From the NCBI GenBank assembly GCA_043812155.1, contig JBDRMK010000011.1:16111-80110 (forward strand): a stretch of DNA of 64,000 nt, written 5' to 3'. Under the pieces are notes generated by a model, which saw nothing but the letters and a program-made list of their open reading frames with translations, was not told the origin of the DNA and searched no databases. The translations under genes and the position numbers were made by a program. This document shows, one piece after another, positions 12,995 through 61,541 of this stretch. Position 1 is the stretch's first letter, and the number at the start of each line of letters is the position of its first letter. This DNA comes from Patescibacteria group bacterium (GTDB lineage: Bacteria; Patescibacteriota; Patescibacteriia; JAXHNJ01).

Positions 12995-13121
12995 AGTTTT
13001 TTATTAACGATATTAACCTTGTTATTATAGCAATAATATATTCATTTTTCAATGATATATTGACTTATCAGGCCTTATAAAATAGAATTACTAAGTAATA
13101 ATAATTTCACAAAAAAAACAT

Positions 13122-13844
13122 ATGAAAGGCGTTATTTTAGCCGGAGGGACAGGCTCAAGGCTTAATCCTTTAACCAAAGTCACAAACAAGCATTTATTGC
13201 CGGTTTATAACCAGCCGATGATTTACTATCCTTTAAAGACTTTAAGCGAAGCCGGCTTGAACGAAATAATGATCGTCTCCGGACCGGGGCACGCCGGACA
13301 TTTTTTAAATCTCCTGGGTTCCGGCCGGGAATTCGGGGTCAAGCTTACCTATGAAATTCAGGAAGAAGCCGGGGGCATTGCCCAGGCTTTAAGGCTCGCC
13401 CAGGATTTCGCGGATAACGAAAAAATCGCCGTGATCTTAGGGGATAATATTTTTGAAGATAAATTTGCCGCGGAAATAAAAGGTTTCACCGAAGGGGACG
13501 GGGGAGCGATGGTTTTTTTGAAAGAAGTAAGCGATCCGGAAAGATTTGGCGTGGCCACCATTCAAGGGAATAAGATCATAAAAATTGTGGAGAAACCAAA
13601 AACTCCGGAAAGCCGTTATGCGGTCACTGGCCTTTATCTCTATGATAATGAAGTGTTTAAGGTGATCAAAACTTTAAAACCCTCGGCCCGGGGGGAGCTG
13701 GAAATAACGGATGTGAATAATTATTACATTAATAACGGCTTGATGAAATACACTATCGTCCAGAATTCCTGGACGGACGCGGGGACTTTTGATTCGTTGC
13801 AACGGGCGACAAATTTAGTGGCGGAACGGGAAAAACAAAAATAG
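13122..13844 (+). CDS. rfbA: glucose-1-phosphate thymidylyltransferase (short form)
   Basis: MKGVILAGGTGSRLNPLTKVTNKHLLPVYNQPMIYYPL.. RmlA N-terminus. Confidence 0.75.
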   Translation: MKGVILAGGTGSRLNPLTKVTNKHLLPVYNQPMIYYPLKTLSEAGLNEIMIVSGPGHAGHFLNLLGSGREFGVKLTYEIQEEAGGIAQALRLAQDFADNEKIAVILGDNIFEDKFAAEIKGFTEGDGGAMVFLKEVSDPERFGVATIQGNKIIKIVEKPKTPESRYAVTGLYLYDNEVFKVIKTLKPSARGELEITDVNNYYINNGLMKYTIVQNSWTDAGTFDSLQRATNLVAEREKQK

Positions 13845-13848
13845 AATA

Positions 13849-15180
13849 TTACAGGATAATCAAATTAATTAGGTCGTCAGATTTATTCTGGCCGTTTTGT
13901 ATTAATAAAGTGATCTCTTTGGCTGAAGGAAGATTTAGTATTTCGGCTTTTTCCGAGTAGAGCAAATTACTATTAATCGTTCCTCTTAGGTCGCATTCAA
14001 TGGCTTTGATAGATTGGTCAGAATTATATATTATATATTCGCTGTTGGGATACCAATAAACTTGGTCAATATTTTTACTTTGGCGGGTGATTAAATTTTC
14101 CTCATCCTTGGTCAGATCATAGGTAAAAATTTCATGCTCATTATTGTAGAGCAGTTTTTTTTGGTTTGGCGAAAGAAGAGACTGACTGATCGCGTGATTA
14201 AAGCAAGTATTTTGATTTTCCTGATTGACCGAAAAAATGCAAAAAGATTGGTTGTCTTTGACGATGAATAGATTCTCGCTTTCCAGGGTTAAAAAATTGT
14301 GGGTGATGTCATTGTATATATTTATGAATCGTTCTTCATTTTTTGCCAAATCCAGCCGGATTAGTTCGGTCGTTTTTTCTTCCGATGTAAGGTAATAGAG
14401 ATAATTATTTTTAACAATAAAATCACGGGCTGGTTTTTGGTTAAGGGCCTGGATTTTTTTATTATAGGGATCGATCCGGTAAATTAAGTCACCCGAAAGC
14501 CCGTATATATTGGAATGACTGACTATCAAATTATTAAAAATTTGGATGGTGAAAGAAGAAAATTTTGTCTTAACGCCTTTAATAAGATCGAAAAGCATTA
14601 AGTCATTTTTCCCCTGTTCTAAAATCCTAGCTACCAAAAATTTATTTTCACCCCAATTTAGGTCAATAATTTCCTCTTCGATATTTTCCTCGATGATTTT
14701 TATTGTTTTGTTTACAGGGTTTATTATTTTTAATGATTTTATGCCATTGCTTTCGGTAATAACCGCTATTTGTGAAGATGAAGTCGAGCTTTTAGCGAAA
14801 AGTATTTTTTCTGATATTAATAAATCTTTTTTAGGGTTATTTTTAAAAAGAACCACTTGGTCGGCAAAAGTCGTGTAATGGGCGAAAATATTCAGTTTTT
14901 TTTGCCAAGACTGGTAGCCTGTTTTTTTTAAAGTTAACAAATATTCCCCCGGTTTTAGGTTGGACAGGCGGGTCGGCGTCCTTTTTTTAGTCAGTAATCC
15001 GTCAAGATAGATATCAGCGTTTTCCGGCTTTGAGGAAACGTAAAAAAGTCCTGTTTTTACGATTTTACGCTCAAAAAGCTTAAAATTATAGCCTAAGGCC
15101 CGAAAAATGATCAGCGGGCCGGCCACCAAAAATATGAGGATAAGGCTTAAGTAGAAGAGGCGACGTTTTTTCGGGCTCAT
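13849..15180 (-). CDS. membrane-anchored PEGA-domain protein with repeat-rich C-terminal region
   Basis: N-terminal TM, PEGA-like ..ADIYLDGLLTKKRTPTRLSNLKPGEYLLTLKKTGYQSW.. Confidence 0.5.
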   Translation of the reverse strand: MSPKKRRLFYLSLILIFLVAGPLIIFRALGYNFKLFERKIVKTGLFYVSSKPENADIYLDGLLTKKRTPTRLSNLKPGEYLLTLKKTGYQSWQKKLNIFAHYTTFADQVVLFKNNPKKDLLISEKILFAKSSTSSSQIAVITESNGIKSLKIINPVNKTIKIIEENIEEEIIDLNWGENKFLVARILEQGKNDLMLFDLIKGVKTKFSSFTIQIFNNLIVSHSNIYGLSGDLIYRIDPYNKKIQALNQKPARDFIVKNNYLYYLTSEEKTTELIRLDLAKNEERFINIYNDITHNFLTLESENLFIVKDNQSFCIFSVNQENQNTCFNHAISQSLLSPNQKKLLYNNEHEIFTYDLTKDEENLITRQSKNIDQVYWYPNSEYIIYNSDQSIKAIECDLRGTINSNLLYSEKAEILNLPSAKEITLLIQNGQNKSDDLINLIIL

Positions 15181-15320
15181 TTTGACTTTATATTATTTTT
15201 CCGATAAACTAGATGTTATTAGTCCCCTTAATCCCATATGAGCAATATGGGGACACCGCTGTTATTTTAACAGAAATAAGAGAACGGGCAAGTAATGGTC
15301 GGGCAAAAATAATATCATAT

Positions 15321-16577
15321 ATGCCGGAAATTTATAAAAAAAATTCATCGCCAAAAGTCGTTTACGGCATTATTCTGATAGTGGCCGTGATTTTTGGTTT
15401 TTTCGGCGGGGTATATTTTGGTTTAAAGATTAATAATCAAGCTGACACTAACGCCAGTTTGCAGACGGTGATTTCCCAGTTAAGCGGTCAAAACACGGGC
15501 ATAGATTTTTCTTTGTTTAAAAAGGTTTGGGATGATGTGCGGACTTTTTATATCAGACAGCCGGTGGATGAGAAGAAACTGTTTTACGGGGCCCTGACCG
15601 GGTTGGTGGCTTCCTTAGATGATCCCTATTCTAATTTTTTAGATCCGGAAACGACCAAGGCTTTTAACAGCGAATTTTCCGGCAGTTTTGAAGGCATCGG
15701 AGCGGAGATCGGGATTAAAAACGATCAGCTTGTGATTATTGCCCCCCTGCCTGGCTCTCCCGCCGAAAAAGCGGGATTAAAATCAAAAGACCAGATTTTA
15801 CAAATTGACGGCCAAGAAACGAACAGTTTTTCCCTTGATTACGCCACTTCGTTGATCCGGGGAAAAAAAGGAACGGAAGTTACGCTCCTGATTTTATCCG
15901 AAGGTGACACGGAGGCCAGGGAGGTGGCCATTACGCGGGACGAAATAAAAGTGAATAGCGTGCGTCAATCGGTAAAAAACGCCGGAGAAAATGGCCGCTA
16001 TAAATTAGGTTATATTGAGTTGATGACTTTTGGCGATGACACGGAAAAAGAATTCAAAAATGCGGCTAATCTATTGGTTGGCCAAGGCATTAATGGTATA
16101 ATATTAGATCTAAGAAATAATTCCGGCGGATATTTGGAAACGGCCGTTACGGTCGCCTCCCAATTTATTGATAAAGGAGCGATAGTCAATGAAGAATTTT
16201 CCGATCAAACTAAAAAATCATACGAGGCCCAAGGTTTCGCTCCGCTGGCTGATTACCCGGTGGTCGTTCTTATCAATGGAGGGACGGCTTCCGCCGCCGA
16301 AATTGTGGCGGGGGCGTTAAGAGATTATGAAAAAGCGGTCTTGGTGGGGGAAACATCTTTTGGTAAGGGTTCTGTCCAGGAATACCAGCAATTATCCGAC
16401 GGCTCTTCCCTAAAAATTACGACGGCCAAATGGCTGACGCCTAAAGGTCAGTCATTGAACGAAGAAGGCATTGAGCCGGATTATGCGGTCGAATTAAGCG
16501 CGGATGATTTTAATAACGACAAAGATCCTCAACTGGATAAAGCGCTGGAGATTCTGGCGGACAAGCTGAATAAATAA
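15321..16577 (+). CDS. ctpA: carboxyl-terminal processing peptidase (S41) with PDZ domain; ORF-track start 15213 likely too far upstream
   Basis: PDZ ..IAPLPGSPAEKAGLKSKDQILQIDG.., S41 ..LDLRNNSGGYL.. and ..GETSFGKG..; signal-anchor after Met at 15321. Confidence 0.8.
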   Translation: MPEIYKKNSSPKVVYGIILIVAVIFGFFGGVYFGLKINNQADTNASLQTVISQLSGQNTGIDFSLFKKVWDDVRTFYIRQPVDEKKLFYGALTGLVASLDDPYSNFLDPETTKAFNSEFSGSFEGIGAEIGIKNDQLVIIAPLPGSPAEKAGLKSKDQILQIDGQETNSFSLDYATSLIRGKKGTEVTLLILSEGDTEAREVAITRDEIKVNSVRQSVKNAGENGRYKLGYIELMTFGDDTEKEFKNAANLLVGQGINGIILDLRNNSGGYLETAVTVASQFIDKGAIVNEEFSDQTKKSYEAQGFAPLADYPVVVLINGGTASAAEIVAGALRDYEKAVLVGETSFGKGSVQEYQQLSDGSSLKITTAKWLTPKGQSLNEEGIEPDYAVELSADDFNNDKDPQLDKALEILADKLNK

Positions 16578-31648: not shown

Positions 31649-32695
31649 ATGCTAGATTCAAATTTTAACATCATAAAAATTTTCGTCCTGACCACGGTAT
31701 CTTTTGTCGTCACTGTTCTTTGGACGCCTCTTCTGACTCATTACCTTTATAAATACAAACTGGGCAAGCAAATCAGAAATGAAGAGGGGACGCCCATTTA
31801 TGCCAAGATTCACGCCGCTAAATCAGGCACTCCTACTATGGGCGGTTTGCTTATCTGGCTGACCACTTTGTTCTTAATTTTCTTTTTTTGGTTTCTTTCA
31901 CGAATCACGAATATTGAATTTATTGATAAACTGAATTTTCTTTCCCGGCCGCAGACTTTTTTGCCGCTAGTTTCGTTGGTCGCGGCCGCCTTTATCGGTT
32001 TGATTGACGATATTATTGATGTGAAAAGCAAAAATGGCCGGGGCGGCATGCGGGTCAGGGAAAGATTGGTTATTTTTACGATAATTGCCGCGGTCGGCGC
32101 GCTTTGGTTTTATTTTAAATTGGATTGGACGACGATCCATATTCCCTTTGTCGGCAATTTTGATATCGGCGCCTGGTATATTCCGATCTTTATTTTTATT
32201 ATCGTTTCCACCGCTTTTTCCGTGAATGAAGCGGACGGCCTGGATGGCTTGGCGGGCGGCATATTATTAGCCTCTTTTGTCGCTTTTGGCGCCATTGCCT
32301 TGTCTCAAGGCCGGGTTGAACTGGCCTCTTTTTGCGGGGTGATCGCTGGCGCTTTGTTTGCTTTTTTATGGTTTAATATCCCGCCGGCCAGATTTTTCAT
32401 GGGTGATACCGGATCCATGTCTTTAGGCGTTACTTTGGGAATTGTGGCGATGCTGACCAATACGGCTTTGCTCTTGCCGATTATTTCTTTTTTACTGGTC
32501 GTGGAATCTTTATCCGTGATCTTACAGATTTTGTCCAAAAAAATCCGAAAGAAGAAAATTTTTCTTTCCGCCCCCATCCATCATCATCTTGAAGCGATCG
32601 GCTGGCCGGAAGGCAAGATCGTGATGCGGTTCTGGATTATTTCCGCGGTTACGGCCGTGATAGGAATTGTATTATATTTAGTGGATAAGGCTTAG
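31649..32695 (+). CDS. mraY: phospho-N-acetylmuramoyl-pentapeptide transferase
   Basis: ..HAAKSGTPTMGG.., ..NEADGLDGLAGG.., ..FMGDTGSMSLG.. Confidence 0.9.
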   Translation: MLDSNFNIIKIFVLTTVSFVVTVLWTPLLTHYLYKYKLGKQIRNEEGTPIYAKIHAAKSGTPTMGGLLIWLTTLFLIFFFWFLSRITNIEFIDKLNFLSRPQTFLPLVSLVAAAFIGLIDDIIDVKSKNGRGGMRVRERLVIFTIIAAVGALWFYFKLDWTTIHIPFVGNFDIGAWYIPIFIFIIVSTAFSVNEADGLDGLAGGILLASFVAFGAIALSQGRVELASFCGVIAGALFAFLWFNIPPARFFMGDTGSMSLGVTLGIVAMLTNTALLLPIISFLLVVESLSVILQILSKKIRKKKIFLSAPIHHHLEAIGWPEGKIVMRFWIISAVTAVIGIVLYLVDKA

Positions 32696-32978: not shown

Positions 32979-33009
32979 GGAATAAATACATTTAAGAAGG
33001 GCCGTTCAA

Positions 33010-33037
33010 AAATAGAGCGGCTCTTTTTTAATAAAAA
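33010..33037. terminator. hairpin GAGCGGCTC followed by T6
   Basis: seen in sequence. Confidence 0.35.
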
Positions 33038-33093
33038 AATGAGCGAACCTTGGAAAGGTCCGCTCGGGAAAGATCGAAAACGATAGGTAGGCG

Positions 33094-33384
33094 CTATCTC
33101 AGGAAGATGACGCGATACAGGTACCCATCCGGTGGCTTCTGGTGAAGCGTGAAATAAACGGCTTTTACCGTGTCTTTCAGCTCCGAGGGGATGTGCCGTT
33201 TGATTTCGGCCATCGTCAAGTTGCGCGGTACGGTAATATTGATAGTTCTCAGCGCTGTCAGATCGTATCTGGCAGCCGGCTTTTTCGGTTTACCCGTGGC
33301 GCCTACTTCAAACCAGTAGCCGTCGGAGTTTTCCGAAACCGGTCCTTGCCTGCCTATAAGAAAAGGGGCGACTCTGATCAGCAT
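33094..33384 (-). CDS. hypothetical protein in GC-rich island 1 (strong SD GAGGAG 5 nt upstream)
   Basis: 96-aa ORF, local GC ~50% vs ~40% background, canonical SD unlike native genes. Confidence 0.4.
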   Translation of the reverse strand: MLIRVAPFLIGRQGPVSENSDGYWFEVGATGKPKKPAARYDLTALRTINITVPRNLTMAEIKRHIPSELKDTVKAVYFTLHQKPPDGYLYRVIFLR

Positions 33385-33540
33385 AGCTACTCCTCTCTGT
33401 TTGAGAAACTAATACCTATCTCACGCTTGCCAAATTCTTGATTTATTATATTATCACTTATTATTGATTTGTCAACACCGTTAAAAATTATATATATATT
33501 AACAACAAAAATGTTTATGCAAGCCTTATTTTTATTGCGG

Positions 33541-33569
33541 TTGACAAAAACGCGTGTATGGCTTAAATT
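33541..33569 (+). promoter_or_regulatory. sigma70-like promoter TTGACA-17-TAAATT for island gene 33621
   Basis: consensus -35, 17-nt spacer. Confidence 0.4.
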
Positions 33570-33620
33570 ATTTATTATAAATGAGACGTAATTCGTTCTT
33601 TTTTACCAGGAGGTCGGCAG

Positions 33621-34052
33621 ATGAAGATAATATTTGTCATTGCCTTGAGCGTTCTTTTCGTGTTTGCGATGGCCGTTCCGGTTTTGGCGCAGGATATCAA
33701 TTCTCCTGATGTTCGTCAGGCGATTATAAAGCGTCTTTTGAATGACGGTTTTTATCTGGGGAATCCGGGTTTTTCCGACGGTTTGCGGTATATCGAATAT
33801 TTGCCGGATAATCGAATGATTATCTGGGGGTTAGGTGATTTTCGTTACAGCGCGGATAAATCAATTCTTCCTTTGGATGAGCTCACTCCGACCTTTATTG
33901 ATTTATCAGACCCGGCCCTGCGCGTGACCGTGGGCAATGACAACCGTTATCTCGGCCAGCTGATGGATTCTTGCCTGGCCACCGGATATTCGGAAAAATA
34001 CCTGAAAGGTGACACTTTTTGGCAACTTGAAGGCCAGCGCAAAAAGCCGTAA
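33621..34052 (+). CDS. secreted hypothetical protein (signal peptide MKIIFVIALSVLFVFAMAVPVLAQD) in GC-rich island 1
   Basis: SD AGGAGG 8 nt upstream, signal peptide, elevated GC. Confidence 0.5.
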   Translation: MKIIFVIALSVLFVFAMAVPVLAQDINSPDVRQAIIKRLLNDGFYLGNPGFSDGLRYIEYLPDNRMIIWGLGDFRYSADKSILPLDELTPTFIDLSDPALRVTVGNDNRYLGQLMDSCLATGYSEKYLKGDTFWQLEGQRKKP

Positions 34053-34078
34053 TCACGGCCAGACAAAGTGATATCATA

Positions 34079-34107
34079 AGCCCTGTCGTCTGATGGGGCT
34101 TTTTTTA
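34079..34107 (+). terminator. rho-independent terminator AGCCCtgtcgtctgatGGGGCTTTTTTT
   Basis: stem plus T7. Confidence 0.6.
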
Positions 34108-34177
34108 ATCTTGACCTTGCCCTTCGCGAAGAGTGAAGTTGGAAAAAACCGGATTTTTTGTTATAATAACGTTAATT

Positions 34178-35569
34178 ATGTTAGATTTTCATAACCTAAA
34201 AAACAAAAAAGTCCTGGTCATGGGTCTGGGCCTGCACGGCGGGGGCGTTTCCGTGGTAAAATGGCTGGTTAAACAGGGGGCGAAAGTCACGGCCACGGAT
34301 TTAAAAACGAAAAAAGACCTTCTACCGTCTTTAGCCAAACTAAAGGCTTTTAAGGTAAAATATGTATTAGGCAGACATAATGTAGAAGATTTTAAAAAGG
34401 CGGATTTAATAATTCAAAATCCCGGCGTGCCGGCTGACTCGAAATATTTAACTATCGCGAAAAAGGCGGGCGTGCCCATTGAAAATGAGGCGACTCTTTT
34501 CTTCAGGCTTTGCCCGGCCCGCATATTGGCTGTTTCCGGCACCAAAGGCAAAAGTTCTTTGGTTTCTTTGCTTTTTCATGTTCTTAAAGGAAAATATAAA
34601 GATACGGTCATGGCCGGCAATATCCGCGACGTTCTGATGCTTGATGTGTTGCCAAAAATAAAAAAGACGACCAAGGTTATTCTTGAATTATCATCTTTTC
34701 AGCTGGAAGGCCTTGAACATTTAAAAAAAAGTCCGCATGCCGCTTTTTTTACCAACATCATGCGGGATCACCTGAACCGCTATGGAACGATGAATAAGTA
34801 TATTGACGCTAAATTAAATCTTATTAGATTTCAAAATAAAAACGATTTTGCCATATTAAACGCCGATAATGTCTATACCCGTCATTTTAACAAAAATACC
34901 AAGGCTAAGATTTTTTGGTTTTCTTTAAAGAAGAAAATAAAACAAGGCGCTTATATAGAAAATAATTGGGCGATTTTCACGGGTGGTAAGAAAAAAGAAA
35001 AGATTTTTTCGTTTGATAAAATTCACCTAGCGGCGGATTACCAGCGGGAACAGTTTCTGGCGGCGGCCATCGCCGGTAAATTGTTCGGCTTGTCAAATAA
35101 AATGATTTATAAAGGCTTAACTAGTTACAAGGGTTTGCACGATCGTTTAGAGTTTTTGGGGGAAATTAAAGGAATCAAGTATTTTAATGATACGGCCGCC
35201 ACCATGCCGGACGCGGCGATTTCCGCCTTAAAAGCATTAGGAAATTTAAAACAGAAAAATATCGTGCTGTTGGCCGGCGGGGCGAATAAGAATTTGATTT
35301 TTCAGGAATTTTGTCGGCTTATTCCCAAATATTGTAAAGGCGTCGTTTTATTTAAAGGTAACGCCAGCGATATTATATCGAGAAAATTAGGACAAAAAGT
35401 AAAGTGGAAAATCGTCAGGAGTATGAAAGAAGCGGTCGGTTTAGCCGAAAAGCGAGCGGCAAAAGGCGATATTATATTGCTTTCACCCGGAGCGGCCAGT
35501 TTTGGCCTATTCAAGCATGAGTTTGACCGCGGCGAGCAGTTTAAAAAATGCGTAAATTTTAAAAAATGA
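34178..35569 (+). CDS. murD: UDP-N-acetylmuramoylalanine--D-glutamate ligase (start taken at MLDFHNLKNKKVLVMGLG)
   Basis: ..KVLVMGLGLHGGG.. N-terminus, ..AVSGTKGKSS.. P-loop, Mur ligase C-domain. Confidence 0.85.
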   Translation: MLDFHNLKNKKVLVMGLGLHGGGVSVVKWLVKQGAKVTATDLKTKKDLLPSLAKLKAFKVKYVLGRHNVEDFKKADLIIQNPGVPADSKYLTIAKKAGVPIENEATLFFRLCPARILAVSGTKGKSSLVSLLFHVLKGKYKDTVMAGNIRDVLMLDVLPKIKKTTKVILELSSFQLEGLEHLKKSPHAAFFTNIMRDHLNRYGTMNKYIDAKLNLIRFQNKNDFAILNADNVYTRHFNKNTKAKIFWFSLKKKIKQGAYIENNWAIFTGGKKKEKIFSFDKIHLAADYQREQFLAAAIAGKLFGLSNKMIYKGLTSYKGLHDRLEFLGEIKGIKYFNDTAATMPDAAISALKALGNLKQKNIVLLAGGANKNLIFQEFCRLIPKYCKGVVLFKGNASDIISRKLGQKVKWKIVRSMKEAVGLAEKRAAKGDIILLSPGAASFGLFKHEFDRGEQFKKCVNFKK

Positions 35570-38007: not shown

Positions 38008-38343
38008 TTAGGCCAAAAATATCACCCAGGGAACGAGTAGTCCCAGAAGAAAACAGGTAACAAATCTTGGCCATGATCTTGAAATGGCGGAGAAAAAATG
38101 TTCCTGCAGCAGGTAGTAAATAACCAGAGCCGCGCATAGGGAAAAAGTTGGCAATAATGCCACGCTCAGGTTATCATTGGAAAATGCCTCCAGGAGTGGC
38201 TTATAAAGAAAGCGACGCATAATGATTATGCTTATGGCCGTTCCCGCTATGATCATAAGCCAATGGCAAGAAAGTCTGTACACTATGTTTTCCCCGACAT
38301 AGATAACAACTAAAAGCAGAAATATGGGGATAACGATTGGCAT
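38008..38343 (-). CDS. hypothetical small membrane protein
   Basis: 111 aa, 3 hydrophobic helices. Confidence 0.35.
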   Translation of the reverse strand: MPIVIPIFLLLVVIYVGENIVYRLSCHWLMIIAGTAISIIIMRRFLYKPLLEAFSNDNLSVALLPTFSLCAALVIYYLLQEHFFSAISRSWPRFVTCFLLGLLVPWVIFLA

Positions 38344-40647: not shown

Positions 40648-40670
40648 GGTGCGCAGCCTCGAAGGGTGAC
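40637..40670 (+). repeat. palindromic repeat TGTCACCCTGAGGTGCGCAGCCTCGAAGGGTGAC overlapping DUF72 stop codon
   Basis: stem GTCACCCT/AGGGTGAC; inverted copy at 11868-11910. Confidence 0.45.
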
Positions 40671-40813
40671 CTATTAAGAAAATTACTGCTATACTTCGAG
40701 GTCATTCGCTGCCGCTCATGACACCTCATTATGACAGTTTGCGGGGAAGGGCGGTGGAAAATGCACGGAAGATGATTGAGATATTGAGCTATTAAAATAT
40801 TAAATTTTTATTC

Positions 40814-40842
40814 TTGACGACTAAATACATATCCATTAAGAT
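40814..40842 (+). promoter_or_regulatory. sigma70-like promoter TTGACG-17-TAAGAT for island 2
   Basis: seen in sequence. Confidence 0.4.
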
Positions 40843-40889
40843 AACGGAATAATCAGAATTTTGCACCTTATCAACGCGGGAGGAAAATC

Positions 40890-41135
40890 ATGGCTATTGA
40901 GGATGTTAAATGGGCGATATGGATGGCTGCTGCAATGGCGAGAGGCAAAGAATATAATGGCAAATTCCATCCTCCTTGGCAGGTAACGCCTCGTCATATG
41001 CAGTTGGGTTGTGATTACGATTTTGCTGCCCTTCTCAGCGCTCAGGGTTATAAGGAATTGAAGGCTTTCAAGGCACGCGTGGCCAAAATAAAAGAAAGAC
41101 ACGTGCGGGAAAGGTTGACCGAAAGCGGCAAATAG
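40890..41135 (+). CDS. hypothetical small protein, island 2 gene 1 (SD GGAGG)
   Basis: 81 aa; strong SD; GC ~50%. Confidence 0.4.
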   Translation: MAIEDVKWAIWMAAAMARGKEYNGKFHPPWQVTPRHMQLGCDYDFAALLSAQGYKELKAFKARVAKIKERHVRERLTESGK

Positions 41136-41150
41136 CTCTGGAGGTCGGAG

Positions 41151-41336
41151 ATGTCCAAATTCGTCTGGTCGGCACCCGAGAACACATTTTTTGACCATTT
41201 TGATGAAAATGGTAACCGTCTATTTTCCGAATCACGAATTTTCGGCCGACAGGACAGACGGATTTCAGCCGGTGAATGGAGAAAATTTCTCAAAAGGCTT
41301 CAAACCCTGAAAGCGAGAATAGCCAAGAGGCGTTAA
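41151..41336 (+). CDS. hypothetical small protein, island 2 gene 2 (SD GGAGG)
   Basis: 61 aa; strong SD. Confidence 0.35.
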   Translation: MSKFVWSAPENTFFDHFDENGNRLFSESRIFGRQDRRISAGEWRKFLKRLQTLKARIAKRR

Positions 41337-41368
41337 AATCTGTATTCATTCAACAGTAGGAGGGAACT

Positions 41369-41548
41369 ATGCCCATTATTGAAACGTCATCAGGCGAAAA
41401 ATTGATTGTCTTCCAAGGCGAGTCGCGGAGAACAGAACTTATTTGCGACGAGGCATTACAGGATGCTTTGCGCGGCGAACATGGCGATTACGCTCCTTTC
41501 AAAGAATTCCTGCGAAGAATGCGGAGGTTAAGACTGTCTCAGACTTGA
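41369..41548 (+). CDS. hypothetical small protein, island 2 gene 3 (SD AGGAGG); below ORF-track length cutoff
   Basis: 59 aa MPIIETSSGEKLIVFQGESRR..; strong SD; followed by terminator. Confidence 0.35.
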   Translation: MPIIETSSGEKLIVFQGESRRTELICDEALQDALRGEHGDYAPFKEFLRRMRRLRLSQT

Positions 41549-41586
41549 GATGGCCGAAAAACCAGATTGTTCATCATTCGTTAATC

Positions 41587-41610
41587 GAGCGCTTCGGCGC
41601 TCTTTTTTTA
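41587..41610 (+). terminator. rho-independent terminator GAGCGCttcgGCGCTCTTTTTTT
   Basis: 6-bp GC stem, tetraloop, T8. Confidence 0.7.
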
Positions 41611-41628
41611 TTCCAAAATTTTGTTATA

Positions 41629-42507
41629 ATGATTTTAATGAGCAATATATCAAATGTACAACAAAACATTCCTCTTGCCCCTTACACTACCTTTAAAATC
41701 GGCGGGCCGGCGAAGTTTTTTGCGGTAGTTAAAAATGAAGGGGAAATAATTGAAAGCTTGAAATGGACTAAAGAAAACAAGCAGCCATATTTTATTCTCG
41801 GACACGGAGCCAATATTTTGGTAAGCGATAAGGGGTTTGACGGATTGGTGATTAAAAATGAGATGAGGAGATTAGAGATTAGGGATGAGGAGGTGACAGC
41901 TGACTCCGGCGTAGTGCTTTCAGAGTTGATTGGAAAATGCGCGAGTATGGGTTTGAGCGGCCTGGAATTTTTGGCCGGCGTGCCTTCCACTCTCGGCGGC
42001 GCGATTTTTGGAAACGCGGGGGCGCCGGAAAAAGCGATTGGTAATTTTGTGGTGAGCGCAAGAATTTTGGATAAAGGGTTTAAAGTAAAAGTGCTTAGCA
42101 AGAGTGAATGCGGATTTGGCTATCGCCAGAGTGTTTTTCAAAGTAACGAACTTATTGTTTTGTCGGCCGCTTTAAAAATGGAAAAAGGCAACACCGAAAA
42201 AATCATAGAAAGCATAAAAAATTTGATGCTTAAGAAAAAGGAAACGCAGGACTTGGAGAATCCTTCCGCCGGCTGCGTGTTTAAAAATGCCGATGGATAT
42301 TCCGCCGGCCAGCTGATTGATGAGCTGGGCCTTAAGGGTAAAAAGATCGGGCAGGCGCAAGTTTCGGAGAAGCACGCCAATTACATTATCAATTTAGGCG
42401 GAGCCACCGCAGACCACGTGGTCCAGCTGATAAGTTTTATTAAACAGCAAGTGCGGGATAAAAAAGGCGTGCAACTCCAGGAAGAAATAAAATACATCGG
42501 ATTTTAA
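41629..42507 (+). CDS. murB: UDP-N-acetylenolpyruvoylglucosamine reductase; ORF-track start 41443 rejected (runs through terminator)
   Basis: ..LAPYTTFKIGGPAKFF.. FAD-binding N-terminus; TATAAT at 41625-41630 immediately upstream. Confidence 0.85.
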   Translation: MILMSNISNVQQNIPLAPYTTFKIGGPAKFFAVVKNEGEIIESLKWTKENKQPYFILGHGANILVSDKGFDGLVIKNEMRRLEIRDEEVTADSGVVLSELIGKCASMGLSGLEFLAGVPSTLGGAIFGNAGAPEKAIGNFVVSARILDKGFKVKVLSKSECGFGYRQSVFQSNELIVLSAALKMEKGNTEKIIESIKNLMLKKKETQDLENPSAGCVFKNADGYSAGQLIDELGLKGKKIGQAQVSEKHANYIINLGGATADHVVQLISFIKQQVRDKKGVQLQEEIKYIGF

Positions 42508-58459: not shown

Positions 58460-59887
58460 ATGGATATAGTTTTTAATATTACCGGAGCCGGCTACACTGA
58501 TTCTTACTTTGCCCCTTTGGTGGCCATGTGGGTTTTGATAGTTAAAGGGGGTTGGGTTGTTTTGTTATTTGCCATTATTCTCGGTCTCTGGTGGGCTTGG
58601 ATCACCTGGCGCAAGAATCTTTATGACGCATCCATAAAAAACATTATTCTGGCCATTGATGTCCCAAAAGAAAATGAGCAAACCCCCAAAGCCGTGGAAA
58701 ATATATTTTCTCATCTGCACGGCGTCAGAAAAGGCGGCAATCTCCTGGAAAAAATATTAAAAGGGTATAACCAGCAGGGTTTCAGCCTGGAAATAATCAG
58801 TATCGGCGGTTATATCCAGTTTTTGATCAGGACGCCGGAAGTTCATCGTGATCTGGTGGAAGCGGCTATCTACGCCCAATATCCTAATGCCGAGATCACG
58901 GAAGTGGAAGACTACACCCAGCGTTACAAAGTCCGGTTTCCCAACGATGAATATGATATATACGGTTGCCATTATAAACTGGAAAAAAATGACGTATATC
59001 CCATAAGAACCTATGTTGCTTTTGAAGATTCCTCGACCAAGGAAGTCTTTAAAGATCCTATGGCCTCTTTGCTGGAAATTTTGAGCCGGGTCAGAGAAGG
59101 AGAGGAGATTTGGCTGCAATTTGTGATCGCTCCCCAATCAAGCGGTAAATGGCGGGAAAAGGGGATCCGGGTGATCAGGAAATTAATAGGGGCAAAAACT
59201 GAAAAAAAAGGCAAAGATGCCCTTTGGCTGCCGCGCAACATTGTTCACGGCGTGAGCGAGTCTTTTACCGCTTCCATTGTTCCGCCGTCTGATATGGCCG
59301 CGGATGAAGAGTCCAAGCAAATTCTAAAATGGCCGACCATGATTCAGCATTTGCCCGCCTGGGAAAAAAACGTGGTGGAAGCGGTCGGCATTAAAATCTC
59401 AAAAATTACTTTTGTGACTAAGATGCGTCTTGTATATTTGGCAAGAAAAGATATTTTTAAACGCAAGCGCTTAATTCCGGCTATTGAGGGGGCTTTAAAG
59501 CAATACAATACCCTTGACCTTAATGGTCTTAGAAGGGATAAGAAATCGGAAACAAAAGTTGTTTACCCTCCTTTTAAATCAATTGTTGAGTGGCGCCAAA
59601 ATAACCGTAAAAGAAGGATTTTATGGGGCTATATATACAGGAGCGGCGTTCGGGGACGCAGCCCCTTTGTCTTGAATATAGAAGAGCTGGCCACTCTTTA
59701 TCATTTCCCCATTATGACCGTGAAAGCGCCGATGGTTAAAAAAACTGAGGCAAAAAAAGCGGAACCGCCGGTTGCTTTGCCTTTAGAGCAAGTTTTTCCC
59801 TTAAGAAAGAAAGGGGAAGGCGGTGAAAATCTTAACGAAGTTTTGGAAAAGAAGGCCGTTTTTCCCGAAAATTTACCATTTGCTTAA
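58460..59887 (+). CDS. membrane protein (two N-terminal TM helices) preceding coupling-protein-like ATPase
   Basis: ..FAPLVAMWVLIVKGGWVVLLFAIILGLWWAWITW.. then 400-aa soluble domain without recognised motif. Confidence 0.35.
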   Translation: MDIVFNITGAGYTDSYFAPLVAMWVLIVKGGWVVLLFAIILGLWWAWITWRKNLYDASIKNIILAIDVPKENEQTPKAVENIFSHLHGVRKGGNLLEKILKGYNQQGFSLEIISIGGYIQFLIRTPEVHRDLVEAAIYAQYPNAEITEVEDYTQRYKVRFPNDEYDIYGCHYKLEKNDVYPIRTYVAFEDSSTKEVFKDPMASLLEILSRVREGEEIWLQFVIAPQSSGKWREKGIRVIRKLIGAKTEKKGKDALWLPRNIVHGVSESFTASIVPPSDMAADEESKQILKWPTMIQHLPAWEKNVVEAVGIKISKITFVTKMRLVYLARKDIFKRKRLIPAIEGALKQYNTLDLNGLRRDKKSETKVVYPPFKSIVEWRQNNRKRRILWGYIYRSGVRGRSPFVLNIEELATLYHFPIMTVKAPMVKKTEAKKAEPPVALPLEQVFPLRKKGEGGENLNEVLEKKAVFPENLPFA

Positions 59888-59894
59888 TTTAAAT

Positions 59895-61541
59895 ATGGCT
59901 TTCCCTCAAAATCCAATTGATGATGTTACGCCCTTTGGCCTGACAAATTTCCGCAATTTGCGGCGTAAGTTTGGTATTAAGGTAGATGACCGCCGAAGAC
60001 ATATGTATCTCATCGGAAAAACCGGCATGGGTAAATCCACCACCATTGAAAATATGATCATTGATGATATCAGAAAGGGGAAAGGAGTCGCCCTCATTGA
60101 TCCTTTAGGCGATTTGGTGGAAAAAGTTATTGAATTTATTCCGAGTTACCGGGTGAATGACGTGGTATATTTTAATCCTTCAGATTTAAATTATCCCATT
60201 GCTTTTAATGTCTTAGAGTCGGTTGATCCGACTCATCATCATCTGGTCACTTCCGGCCTGATTGCTGTTTTTAAGAAAATTTGGGTTGACTCCTGGGGCC
60301 CGAGACTGGAATACGTCTTGCGTAATACAATTTTAGCCCTGTTGGAATATCCGGGGAGCACCCTGCTCGGGGTCACCCGTCTTTTGGTTGATAAAAATTT
60401 CCGCGCTAAAGTCATCAGTCGTTTGACCGATCCTATTGTCAAAGCTTTTTGGGTAGATGAATATTCCGCCTATTCCAACCAATTTAGAACGGAAGCGATT
60501 TCGCCTATTCAAAATAAGGTCGGCCAATTTCTTTCCAGTTCAGTTATCAGGAATATCGTCGGTCAGTCAAAAAGCACCATTGATATGCGTGAAATAATGG
60601 ACAACGGTAAGATTCTTCTTCTTAATTTAGCAAAAGGCAGGATTGGCGAGGATAATTCTTCACTTTTAGGTGCGATGATGGTGACAAAAATTCAATTGGC
60701 GGGCATGAGCCGGGTGGATATACCTGAAGAACAGCGAAATGATTTTTATCTTTACGTTGATGAATTTCAAAATTTCGCCACCGAGAGTTTTGGGACGATT
60801 CTTTCTGAAGCGAGAAAATACCGCCTAAATTTAACCTTGGCTCACCAATACATTGAACAGCTGGATGAAAAAGTGGCGGCGGCGGTTTTCGGCAACGTCG
60901 GCACGATCGTATGTTTTCGGGTCGGAGCGGCCGACGCCGAATTTTTAGTCAAAGAATTCGACCCGGTTTTTTCCGAAACCGACCTGGTTAATTTAACCAA
61001 GTTTGAAGTTTACTTAAAATTAATGATTGACGGCGTTTCCTCCGAACCTTTTTCCGCTCTGACCTTGCCCCCTTTAACCGACGTGGAAGGCAATAAAGAG
61101 AAAATTATCAATGTGTCGCGGGAAAGATATTCCATACCCAGAGAAGAAATAGAGGAAAAAATCCTCCGCTGGAGCGGTATGTCGGAAATGTATAAAGAAA
61201 CCGCCCAGCAGGAAAATATTGTCGCGGAAAGAAGACTGAGTAATACCCGCGAATACCGGCCTGAAGAAAAAGAAACTAGGCCAAAAATCGATTTCCGCAA
61301 GGAAAAAATTTTACCGGTGGAATCCATCAAACCGAGCGAAGAGATCTCTTTAAACGAGGCTTTAAAGCGGGAGCCGATCCCATTTGGCCGGCGAAGAAGC
61401 CAGGAAAAAAGAATTGAAAGAACCAATGATCAAAGTCGCCCTGAGAAAAAATCCTTTCCAACGCCAAATTATACCGTCCCTGCTTTAAAACCCCATCAGC
61501 AGACTCTTAAACCCGGCCAAGTTATAAGGCTGGACCGATAA
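59895..61541 (+). CDS. TraD/TraG/VirD4 (type IV coupling protein)-like P-loop ATPase lacking own TM anchor; long charged disordered C-terminal tail
   Basis: Walker A ..IGKTGMGKST.., Walker B ..FYLYVDEFQNF.., TraG-D_C-like ..SEARKYRLNLTLAHQYIEQL..; start chosen at MAFPQNPIDD after upstream stop. Confidence 0.55.
   Translation: MAFPQNPIDDVTPFGLTNFRNLRRKFGIKVDDRRRHMYLIGKTGMGKSTTIENMIIDDIRKGKGVALIDPLGDLVEKVIEFIPSYRVNDVVYFNPSDLNYPIAFNVLESVDPTHHHLVTSGLIAVFKKIWVDSWGPRLEYVLRNTILALLEYPGSTLLGVTRLLVDKNFRAKVISRLTDPIVKAFWVDEYSAYSNQFRTEAISPIQNKVGQFLSSSVIRNIVGQSKSTIDMREIMDNGKILLLNLAKGRIGEDNSSLLGAMMVTKIQLAGMSRVDIPEEQRNDFYLYVDEFQNFATESFGTILSEARKYRLNLTLAHQYIEQLDEKVAAAVFGNVGTIVCFRVGAADAEFLVKEFDPVFSETDLVNLTKFEVYLKLMIDGVSSEPFSALTLPPLTDVEGNKEKIINVSRERYSIPREEIEEKILRWSGMSEMYKETAQQENIVAERRLSNTREYRPEEKETRPKIDFRKEKILPVESIKPSEEISLNEALKREPIPFGRRRSQEKRIERTNDQSRPEKKSFPTPNYTVPALKPHQQTLKPGQVIRLDR

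Follow-up and report, generated by a model that had tools for sequence, protein, structure and literature searches.

What explains two small genes with strong Shine-Dalgarno (SD) sequences inside a conserved cell-wall gene cluster, in a genome where such sequences are otherwise scarce? The question is raised by the interval 33040-34110 of a 64,000-nucleotide stretch, hereafter the window, of contig JBDRMK010000011.1, part of a metagenome-assembled genome (MAG; locus tags ABIH38_*) of the Patescibacteria, within the Candidate Phyla Radiation (CPR). The interval lies between mraY and murD of the division and cell-wall (dcw) cluster, and holds an open reading frame (ORF) of 96 amino acids (aa) on the minus strand and a 143-aa ORF on the plus strand. 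A sequence-only reading of the window had taken the two as one GC-rich mini-island, recently acquired from a donor that uses SD sequences. The comparison with related loci leads to a different answer, namely that the interval probably comprises two separate and autonomously expressed small-gene units in the dcw cluster, between mraY and murD, of a small Patescibacteria clade, and not one recently imported island.

The distribution of the 143-aa gene is the first line of evidence. A search of 5.8 billion clustered proteins returned five relatives of its product at 52-62% identity, all of them on Patescibacteria-type contigs (loci L001, L002, L003, L004 and L007), such that the family has six members with that of the window included. 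One member, P0008, was added by a profile search, and scans of GTDB-representative genomes and JGI metagenomes for further relatives returned only a contig that was already known. L005 and L006 both denote a 608,530-bp contig (JBAZMP010000001) that is present in two collections, and L001 is a separate 382-kb assembly with an identical protein. The gene order in L001 is that of a PMT-type glycosyltransferase, mraY, an 83-aa gene, the 145-aa family gene, murD, ftsW, murG and murC; in L002 and L004 the family gene is likewise directly upstream of murD, and in L007 the order is PMT, mraY, an 84-aa gene, a 135-aa minus-strand ORF and a 144-aa family gene. Indeed, the position mraY-84aa-X-murD is identical wherever the contigs of the relatives reach the neighbouring gene. 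The core neighbours in the window are 73-90% identical to those of L001 and L007 (MraY 83-88%, FtsW 90%; identities of MurD are left out of account), and L001 and L007 are therefore close relatives. A recent island would be absent from the same site in such relatives, which is not what is found: the 143-aa gene has its counterpart in all five, and a homologue of the 96-aa gene is present in L004.

The regulatory signals of the 143-aa gene have been retained along with it. The TTGACA and TAAATT hexamers of its promoter, the GGAGG, the exact distance of 7 nucleotides (nt) to the ATG and the terminator are conserved in six loci, and the spacer between GGAGG and ATG is different in each of them (TCGGCAG, TGGAATA, CAAGCTG, TAGGGCA, TGCCGGT and TAGTCGG), as is, for the most part, the rest of the leader. 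A motif that is fixed, at a fixed distance, with a spacer that is free to vary, is the signature of what would be a functional SD. A test for conserved RNA structure in the leader, made on the six loci, predicted no base pairs. In L001 the orthologue is the sole strong-SD gene among 19 ORFs, at -14.0 kcal/mol. Between the L002 and L004 copies of the family gene the ratio of nonsynonymous to synonymous substitution rates (dN/dS) is 0.20, and the L004 copy, a 145-aa gene, is a mosaic (L004 301-800 compared), in which nt 61-300 are 93-98% identical to L002 and the sequence from nt 361 into the 3' flank is 92-95% identical to L001, a pattern that indicates recombination between lineages inside the gene. 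Because the relatives carry the gene at the same position and with the same signals, the 143-aa gene and its SD are, to judge from these comparisons, ancestral to the clade, the SD being a conserved native signal rather than the footprint of a donor.

Nor does composition single out the interval. Its GC content, which had been put at ~50%, is 44.7%, where the window mean is 41.3% (z = 1.04), and a value as high or higher is found in 13% of windows of that size; its tetranucleotide distance is similarly unremarkable, since 15% of windows equal or surpass it. With 46.3% GC, the 143-aa ORF is inside the native gene range of 29-49%, and its synonymous codon usage is native-like, 81% of equal-size core-gene samples being as distant from the core mean or more so. 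The sole outlier is the 96-aa ORF, which with 52.2% GC and a third-position GC content (GC3) of 0.62 is the highest ORF in the window (top 1.1% of same-size windows), and which is borderline atypical in codon usage (5.4% of core samples as distant); a local step in GC is seen at this ORF. With the two genes pooled, codon usage is not atypical (27.5% of core samples as distant). In other words, the interval as a whole resembles its background in GC, tetranucleotides and codons and bears no compositional signature of a recent island, and only a marginal signal in GC and codon usage, confined to the 96-aa ORF, is left of the compositional contrast first described.

It is in this regard that the island has to be judged. 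A recent horizontal transfer of the whole 1.1 kb, as one two-gene island from an SD-using and GC-richer donor, would account for strong SDs in an SD-poor genome, for the 52% GC of the 96-aa ORF (the window maximum), for the orphan status of both proteins, and for the finding, described further below, that six small strong-SD genes of the window exceed the core genes in GC content (p = 0.0008). Such a transfer is nonetheless highly improbable, given that five related loci have the 143-aa gene at this position, complete with promoter, SD and terminator, and given that the interval is ordinary in GC, tetranucleotide and pooled codon usage alike. Moreover, no integrase or transposase ORF was found in 30-37 kb, no tRNA in the window, and no bracketing direct repeats other than short chance repeats. 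The two genes, besides, do not travel together: they are not one island because L001 has the 143-aa orthologue without a gene in the position of the 96-aa gene, and because the L007 144-aa gene has a different partner. The claim of a recent two-gene acquisition thus fails for the 143-aa gene, and what survives of it is an accessory slot, for the 96-aa gene only.

This slot can be followed through the relatives. In L001, which is without the 96-aa gene, the terminator of the 83-aa gene runs straight into the TTGACA of the 145-aa gene, and the segment that the window has in addition is ~33030-33540. At the position of the window's minus-strand promoter a divergent TTGACA-17-TAAGAT is present in L002, L003, L004 and L007. 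The L007 slot contains the 135-aa ORF, with an AGGAGG SD and with a terminator hairpin, GAGCGGACGGCGAAGGTCCGCTC, that is like that of the window and at the same place; when the two slots are compared by blastn, only their two flanks align (77-79%, and 77% at the flank of the 96-aa terminator). In L004 the slot ORF is truncated by the end of the contig (2-118, minus strand), leaving 39 N-terminal codons behind an AGGAG SD. These match the N-terminus of the 96-aa protein at 15 of 36 aligned positions (~42%), with a Smith-Waterman score of 62, where shuffled sequences give 20.7 +/- 3.9 and at most 43 in 2000; by BLASTP the 39-aa L004 fragment and the 96-aa protein did not align. The occupants have a GC content of 52% in the window, 56% in L004 and 53% in L007, with backgrounds of ~42% (45.5% for the 961-bp L004 contig). 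The slot is, as far as can be read from these alignments, a conserved regulatory frame in which the ORF is variable or missing. The 96-aa gene would accordingly be accessory, and the observations are consistent with a possible foreign origin; it is evidently not recent, because its L004 homologue matches only those 15 of 36 N-terminal positions. The other flank of the 143-aa-family gene is also occupied in one locus: in L003 an additional orphan gene of 187 aa (770-1333) separates the 145-aa gene from murD, and the mraY-murD junction therefore accepts further units on either side of the conserved gene. The 187-aa gene comes with a promoter of its own (TTGACA-17-TAATTT), the SD AAAGGAGG and a terminator (region 700-1400).

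Exchange of the slot ORF is not the only process that could produce such a frame. The 96-aa type of slot ORF (window and L004) and the 135-aa type (L007) could be one ancestral gene that has diverged very fast, with insertions and deletions but no replacement, in which case the 96-aa gene would be as native as its neighbour. The loci share the promoter, the SD position and the terminator of the slot, and in all three a [SA]-D-G-[YH] motif is followed by aromatic residues (NSDGYWF in the window, NADGHFY in L004, SSDGYHWY in L007); the adjacent 143-aa family is itself fast-evolving, with its 52-62% identity set against 83-90% for MraY and FtsW. Even so, continuous divergence is unlikely. The 96-aa protein and the L007 135-aa protein have no significant similarity under either of two gap models, their best local alignment being a marginal one that 15 of 1000 shuffles reach, and tblastn of each protein against the other locus gave no match. 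Furthermore, there is no nucleotide similarity inside the ORFs despite flanks at 77-79%, and the proteins differ in length by 39 residues.

A more radical objection is that the 96-aa ORF is a chance open frame in an intergenic spacer, surrounded by signals that are coincidental. The protein is indeed an ORFan, its only match among the 5.8 billion clustered proteins being itself, it is overlapped by a 99-aa antisense ORF, and its single-sequence structural model is of moderate quality (predicted local distance difference test, pLDDT, 67.7). This explanation is very unlikely in view of the full and correctly ordered set of promoter, SD and terminator on the ORF's own strand, of the homologous N-terminus in L004 behind its own SD and the same promoter, and of a GC3 of 0.62 that exceeds the second-position value (0.41) in the called frame. 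A further point against it is a similarity to a repeat domain: an exhaustive HMMER search of 1.84 billion representatives returned the 96-aa protein itself and one repeat protein only, and residues 22-80 resemble a ~96-residue repeat of this 842-aa protein (33% over 60 residues, pairwise E = 2e-6). The resemblance is a lead towards a possible domain of the beta-sandwich type in the 96-aa protein and, weakly, towards an ultimately foreign origin of its gene. The 842-aa protein (P0007; L008 4001-6529) is encoded beside a pilin-like (N_methyl) gene on a non-CPR contig with 64% GC, and consists of at least seven tandem ~96-residue repeats that belong to no Pfam family; the length of the repeat is that of the window's 96-aa protein. 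The latter is without a signal peptide; beta-strands make up most of its model, for which Foldseek searches of PDB and BFVD gave only sub-threshold matches.

Other identities for the two units were considered and rejected. An integron cassette or insertion sequence element would be expected with an attC site, an integrase or flanking repeats, of which there are none. A role for the 96-aa protein as divergent regulator of the 143-aa gene finds no Pfam or NCBIfam match, DNA-binding families included, and the model is mostly beta-strand, albeit at moderate confidence; the partner is, besides, absent or different in the relatives. A toxin-antitoxin or anti-phage defence pair was also rejected, there being no PADLOC or Pfam match, no co-occurrence in L001 and a different partner in L007. 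Scans of 2.9 million viral contigs gave no relatives of the 96-aa protein, of the 143-aa family (searched as an alignment) or of the L007 135-aa, L003 187-aa and an 81-aa (see below) protein. The 84-aa, 111-aa (see below), L007 135-aa and L003 187-aa proteins have no significant Pfam, NCBIfam, PADLOC or PHROGs family.

Finally among the alternatives, the junctions might be an artefact of chimeric assembly, for which the general risk in MAGs and a GC step at the 96-aa ORF only could be cited. The chance of this is negligible: L007 is collinear with the window from the 84-aa gene through the terminators, the minus-strand ORF and the divergent promoters to the 144-aa gene, and L001, L002 and L004 are collinear through the 145-aa gene, the terminator and murD, such that independent assemblies from other samples span both of the junctions.

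With the alternatives weighed, the layout of the two units can be given (Table 1). The gene order at the locus is that of a PMT-type glycosyltransferase (minus strand), a 124-aa ORF, mraY, the 84-aa gene, the 96-aa gene (minus strand), the 143-aa gene, murD, ftsW, murG and murC; the region had been correctly placed between mraY and murD, but is not directly adjacent to mraY, after which the 84-aa gene intervenes. The 84-aa gene has counterparts of 83/84 aa at this place in L001 (87% identity) and L007 (83%), and the terminator that follows it is found in both loci too. Both units have their own predicted promoter, of the sigma-70 type, upstream and a factor-independent terminator downstream, as judged by consensus scans and folding, and both SDs are canonical in duplex energy and spacing. 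Several elements of the sequence-only reading are borne out here: the two ORFs and their GAGGAG and AGGAGG sequences are there as described, the TTGACA-17-TAAATT promoter is present, accompanied by a divergent promoter of the minus-strand gene that had gone unmentioned, and the bracketing by terminators is confirmed as three elements of hairpin and T-run, all of which fold far better than shuffled controls (z -3.9 to -6.0).

Table 1. Features at the mraY-murD junction; positions are those of the window.
Feature	Position	Strand	Remarks
mraY	31649-32695		
84-aa membrane-protein gene, two helices	32724..32978	+	Conserved left neighbour, 3' of mraY
Intrinsic terminator, mraY/84-aa transcription unit	32998..33029	+	14-bp hairpin and T-run; -19.1 kcal/mol, z = -5.9
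Intrinsic terminator, 96-aa gene	33031..33065	-	Hairpin 33065-33041, T-run 33040-33031; -17.2 kcal/mol, z = -6.0
96-aa ORF (NCBI ABIH38_01885, hypothetical protein)	33094..33384	-	Occupant of variable minus-strand slot
SD GAGGAG, 96-aa gene	33390..33395	-	5 nt from ATG; -8.6 kcal/mol
Predicted promoter, 96-aa gene	33448..33475	-	TTGACA, 16 nt, TG-extended TAATAT; consensus scan
Back-to-back divergent promoter core	33468..33548	.	21-nt inverted repeat of the two -35 regions (33468-33488 / 33528-33548), 81% complementary
Predicted promoter, 143-aa gene	33541..33569	+	TTGACA, 17 nt, TAAATT; consensus scan
SD AGGAGG, 143-aa gene	33608..33613	+	GGAGG core ends 7 nt before ATG; -11.5 kcal/mol
143-aa ORF (NCBI ABIH38_01890, hypothetical protein)	33621..34052	+	
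Intrinsic terminator, 143-aa gene	34078..34108	+	Hairpin and T-run called at 34078-34101; -15.2 kcal/mol, z = -3.9; conserved in L001, L002, L004 and L007
murD predicted own promoter and true start, ATG 34179	34139..34181	+	TTGGAA, 17 nt, TG-extended TATAAT; right boundary

The divergent promoters are arranged such that their -35 regions face each other as an inverted repeat, which could be a candidate site for a dimeric regulator or could equally be the mere mirror image of two -35/UP elements. The relatives carry TTTGTCAAG-N12-20-CTTGACAAA at the facing -35 regions, with a spacer shorter than that of the window, which has ~45 extra A/T-rich bases between the two -35 boxes, including a (TA)n run. 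At the right boundary, murD starts at ATG 34179 and not at GTG 34133, and this start (MLDFHNLKNKK...) together with its TTTTTTGTTATAAT box is conserved in L001, L003 and L004.

How exceptional the two SDs are becomes evident from the rest of the window. Duplex energies with the anti-SD were computed against CACCUCCUUU; over the 63 ORFs of at least 80 aa the median is 0.0 kcal/mol, as against -1.9 for random 17-mers, and the scarcity of SDs that had been noted by eye is accordingly real. Only four of the 63 reach -8 kcal/mol or below. Two of these are the genes of the interval (143 aa, -11.5; 96 aa, -8.6), and the others are a 111-aa gene (38008-38343; -11.5) and a VirD4-like gene of uncertain start (-8.1). 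The starts of native core genes have 78-84% A+T and 6-10% G at positions -8 to -1, which suggests that A/U-rich, SD-independent initiation may be the default mode for core genes. A weak AAGGAA is seen ~8-10 nt upstream of several core starts (e.g. 4263, 9551, 23015(-) and 53046). The starts of murD and murB (ATG 34179 and 41639) are 8-12 nt past TG-extended TATAAT boxes (TTTTGTTATAAT, TGTTATAAT; region 41615-41641 for murB), and their mRNAs would be leaderless or nearly so; the start of the longest ORF is wrong for murB (TTG 41443), as it is for murD. Hexamers resembling a -10 element are found ~0-11 nt from the start in many other core genes. The conserved GGAGG of the 143-aa family, for its part, argues that the clade probably retains SD reading.

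From these observations a mechanism can be proposed. The 143-aa gene would be transcribed alone, from a near-consensus sigma-70 promoter, into an mRNA with a leader of perhaps ~45-50 nt that is without conserved secondary structure; translation would start by canonical contact of the GGAGG with the anti-SD at the fixed 7-nt spacing, transcription would end at the gene's own hairpin terminator, and the product would most likely be released to the cell envelope or exterior. The 96-aa gene, divergently transcribed, would occupy a slot of which the promoter and terminator are common to the relatives and the ORF is different or gone, with turnover most likely by homologous recombination in the conserved flanks, together with deletion. 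Strong SDs would then be a property of leadered, self-contained units, and core genes would start from A/U-rich, G-poor or very short leaders.

The predicted nature of the 143-aa protein is commensurate with this scheme. Its N-terminus (MKIIFVIALSVLFVFAMAVPVLA|QD) is arranged in the n, h and c regions of a Sec signal peptide, an arrangement retained in all six family members, with residues 1-23 comprising K2, a hydrophobic stretch at 3-20 and the cleavage site VLA|Q; there is no Cys at +1, and hence no lipobox. Across the six members the cleavage site varies as VFA|Q, VLA|Q, ALG|Q and VFT|Q. The family has the conserved motifs DGLRY, WGLGDFR, DLSDP and DSCLATGYPEK, one conserved cysteine and a conserved basic C-terminal tail, G-[KRQ]-[KRM]-[KN]-[KRQ]-P; the 143-aa product is without a membrane anchor. 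The product is thus predicted to be a Sec-exported protein, either soluble or wall-associated. Membership of DUF6491 was rejected for the family, as E = 0.03 in two of six members is far below the cut-off.

Several points weigh against the picture of two native-signalled units as drawn so far. The comparison is of six known family members only, and the relatives are unrooted, MraY placing L007 nearest the window and the 143-aa protein placing L001 nearest; the contigs of L002 and L003, moreover, end before the slot ORF. Neither the 96-aa nor the 143-aa protein has a match in Pfam, NCBIfam, PADLOC, PHROG or, by sequence and profile search, PDB, the AlphaFold model of the latter, made from a five-sequence alignment, is poor (pLDDT 48.9) and was not used for a fold search, and its signal peptide was called by inspection and conservation, not by a trained predictor. 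As regards the translation signal, an Rfam scan of the window gave no match at all, rRNA included, the 16S gene lies outside it, and an intact anti-SD in the host 16S is what we infer from SD conservation only; in Parcubacteria the anti-SD motif was found in only 48% of 16S genes (PMC9297842).

The two units are not the only ones of their kind in the window. A scan for GGAGG-type sequences 4-10 nt upstream of starts shows that the remaining clear SD-led starts belong to small orphan units between core genes. The first is a 111-aa membrane-protein ORF on the minus strand (38008-38343) between murG and murC, with the SD GGGAGGAAGAG and a promoter-like site TTGACT-17-TAAGCT; in L001, murG (13053-14129) abuts murC (14131-15522) with no gene between. 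MreD was rejected as its identity, the match (E = 0.011) being below the cut-off. The second is a three-gene unit on the plus strand at ~40650-41610, between a DUF72 gene and murB, with a promoter TTGACG-17-TAAGAT at ~40815-40843, three ORFs of 81 aa (40890-41135), 61 aa (41151-41336) and 59 aa (41369-41548), all of them preceded by a GGAGG at a distance of 5-6 nt, and, as terminator, GAGCGCTTCGGCGCTC and a T-run at ~41587-41609. This unit is absent from L001, where the stop of the DUF72 gene overlaps the start of murB, and its three proteins, all orphans, gave no significant match in Pfam, the one family collection consulted for them. Taken as a group, the six SD-led small genes are GC-richer than 58 core genes (46.7% vs 40.4%, Mann-Whitney p = 0.0008), and their synonymous codon usage is indistinguishable from that of the core. 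The VirD4-like gene noted above, a homologue of VirD4/TrwB-type coupling proteins (59823-61541, plus strand; Pfam TrwB_AAD_bind, E = 2.8e-10), has the purine-rich GGGGAAGG before its GTG start. No other large gene is preceded by an SD-like sequence, and the presence of this one may point to a conjugative or type IV secretion element.

A wider claim could be built on these units, namely that strong SDs in the clade are reserved for self-contained orphan-gene modules wedged between SD-less core cell-wall genes, and that at least one such module acts as an 'expression slot', which keeps its regulatory frame as the ORF within it is swapped, lost or arises de novo. The putative module would consist of TTGACN, a spacer of 16-17 nt and a TAAnnT-type -10, a leader of perhaps tens of nt, GGAGG 5-9 nt from the start and a hairpin terminator. 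As a joint claim this is put forward tentatively, and we doubt that all of its parts will hold together. If true, it would mean that two regimes of translation initiation co-exist, one for core and the other for accessory genes, and that a minimal genome has a chromosomal, non-phage counterpart of morons (see below) by which it is supplied with orphan genes.

What the locus signifies is, in the first instance, a caution to annotation: in these genomes a strong SD or a local rise in GC is no evidence of foreign origin, and the clean case of recent transfer into a reduced genome, as first framed, does not hold. The clear strong-SD starts in 64 kb of an SD-poor genome belong instead to small autonomous units. 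For CPR biology these units provide concrete test genes for the use of the anti-SD by these ribosomes, a matter left open by an earlier survey (PMC9297842), and they are candidates for envelope or host-interaction proteins in episymbionts. Among them is a six-member orphan family of small, predicted secreted proteins that is fixed inside the dcw cluster of one Patescibacteria clade.

Known systems offer several points of comparison. At the level of fold, the C-terminal ~60 residues of the 96-aa model superpose weakly on the YdgH/BhsA/McbA-like (DUF1471) proteins YdgH-C, SrfN and STM0082 (Foldseek E = 0.03-0.6, template-modelling score 0.44-0.56), and a phage protein with a YdgH-like domain is among the weak viral matches of the model. 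YdgH/BhsA/McbA-like proteins are periplasmic; the 96-aa protein, in contrast, has neither a signal peptide nor a Pfam or NCBIfam match to the family, and with a model of moderate quality no match reaches E <= 0.001. At the level of gene content, the slot is like genomic islands and integron cassettes in that what it holds varies between conserved flanks. Integron cassettes, however, are promoterless, whereas here the slot supplies the promoter, and the locus has no integrase, attC-like site, tRNA or direct repeats.

With respect to translation, the organism is like the anti-SD-less Parcubacteria (PMC9297842) in being a CPR member with almost no SD use in its core genes, and unlike them in the invariant GGAGG at a fixed 7 nt in six loci. 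There is a likeness also to the Bacteroidia, the ribosomes of which sequester the anti-SD and in which rpsU carries the one strong SD, for autoregulation (PMC7797042, PMC9976891, PMC13000453). Both have an SD-less, A/U-rich start context and a very few genes that keep a strong, conserved SD, as seen here in the 64-kb window; the difference is that the strong-SD genes of the window are small orphans and not a ribosomal protein gene, and that no regulatory loop is evident.

In anatomy the units resemble phage morons, which are independent transcription units inserted between two genes that in related phages are neighbours (PMC3594210). The units of the window differ from morons in their setting, which is the dcw cluster (mraY, murD, ftsW, murG, murC) of a bacterial chromosome with no phage genes nearby, in having no PHROG or viral-contig relatives, and, for the 143-aa unit, in being present in every available relative. 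They are like morons in that each has its own predicted promoter, a factor-independent terminator and a small gene unrelated to its neighbours, in that they tend to be GC-richer than those neighbours, and in their placement: the 96-aa unit sits between two elements that are directly adjacent in L001, and the 111-aa unit and the 81/61/59-aa operon separate genes that abut there. The units of this locus would belong to a known kind, that of lineage-specific and autonomously expressed accessory genes.

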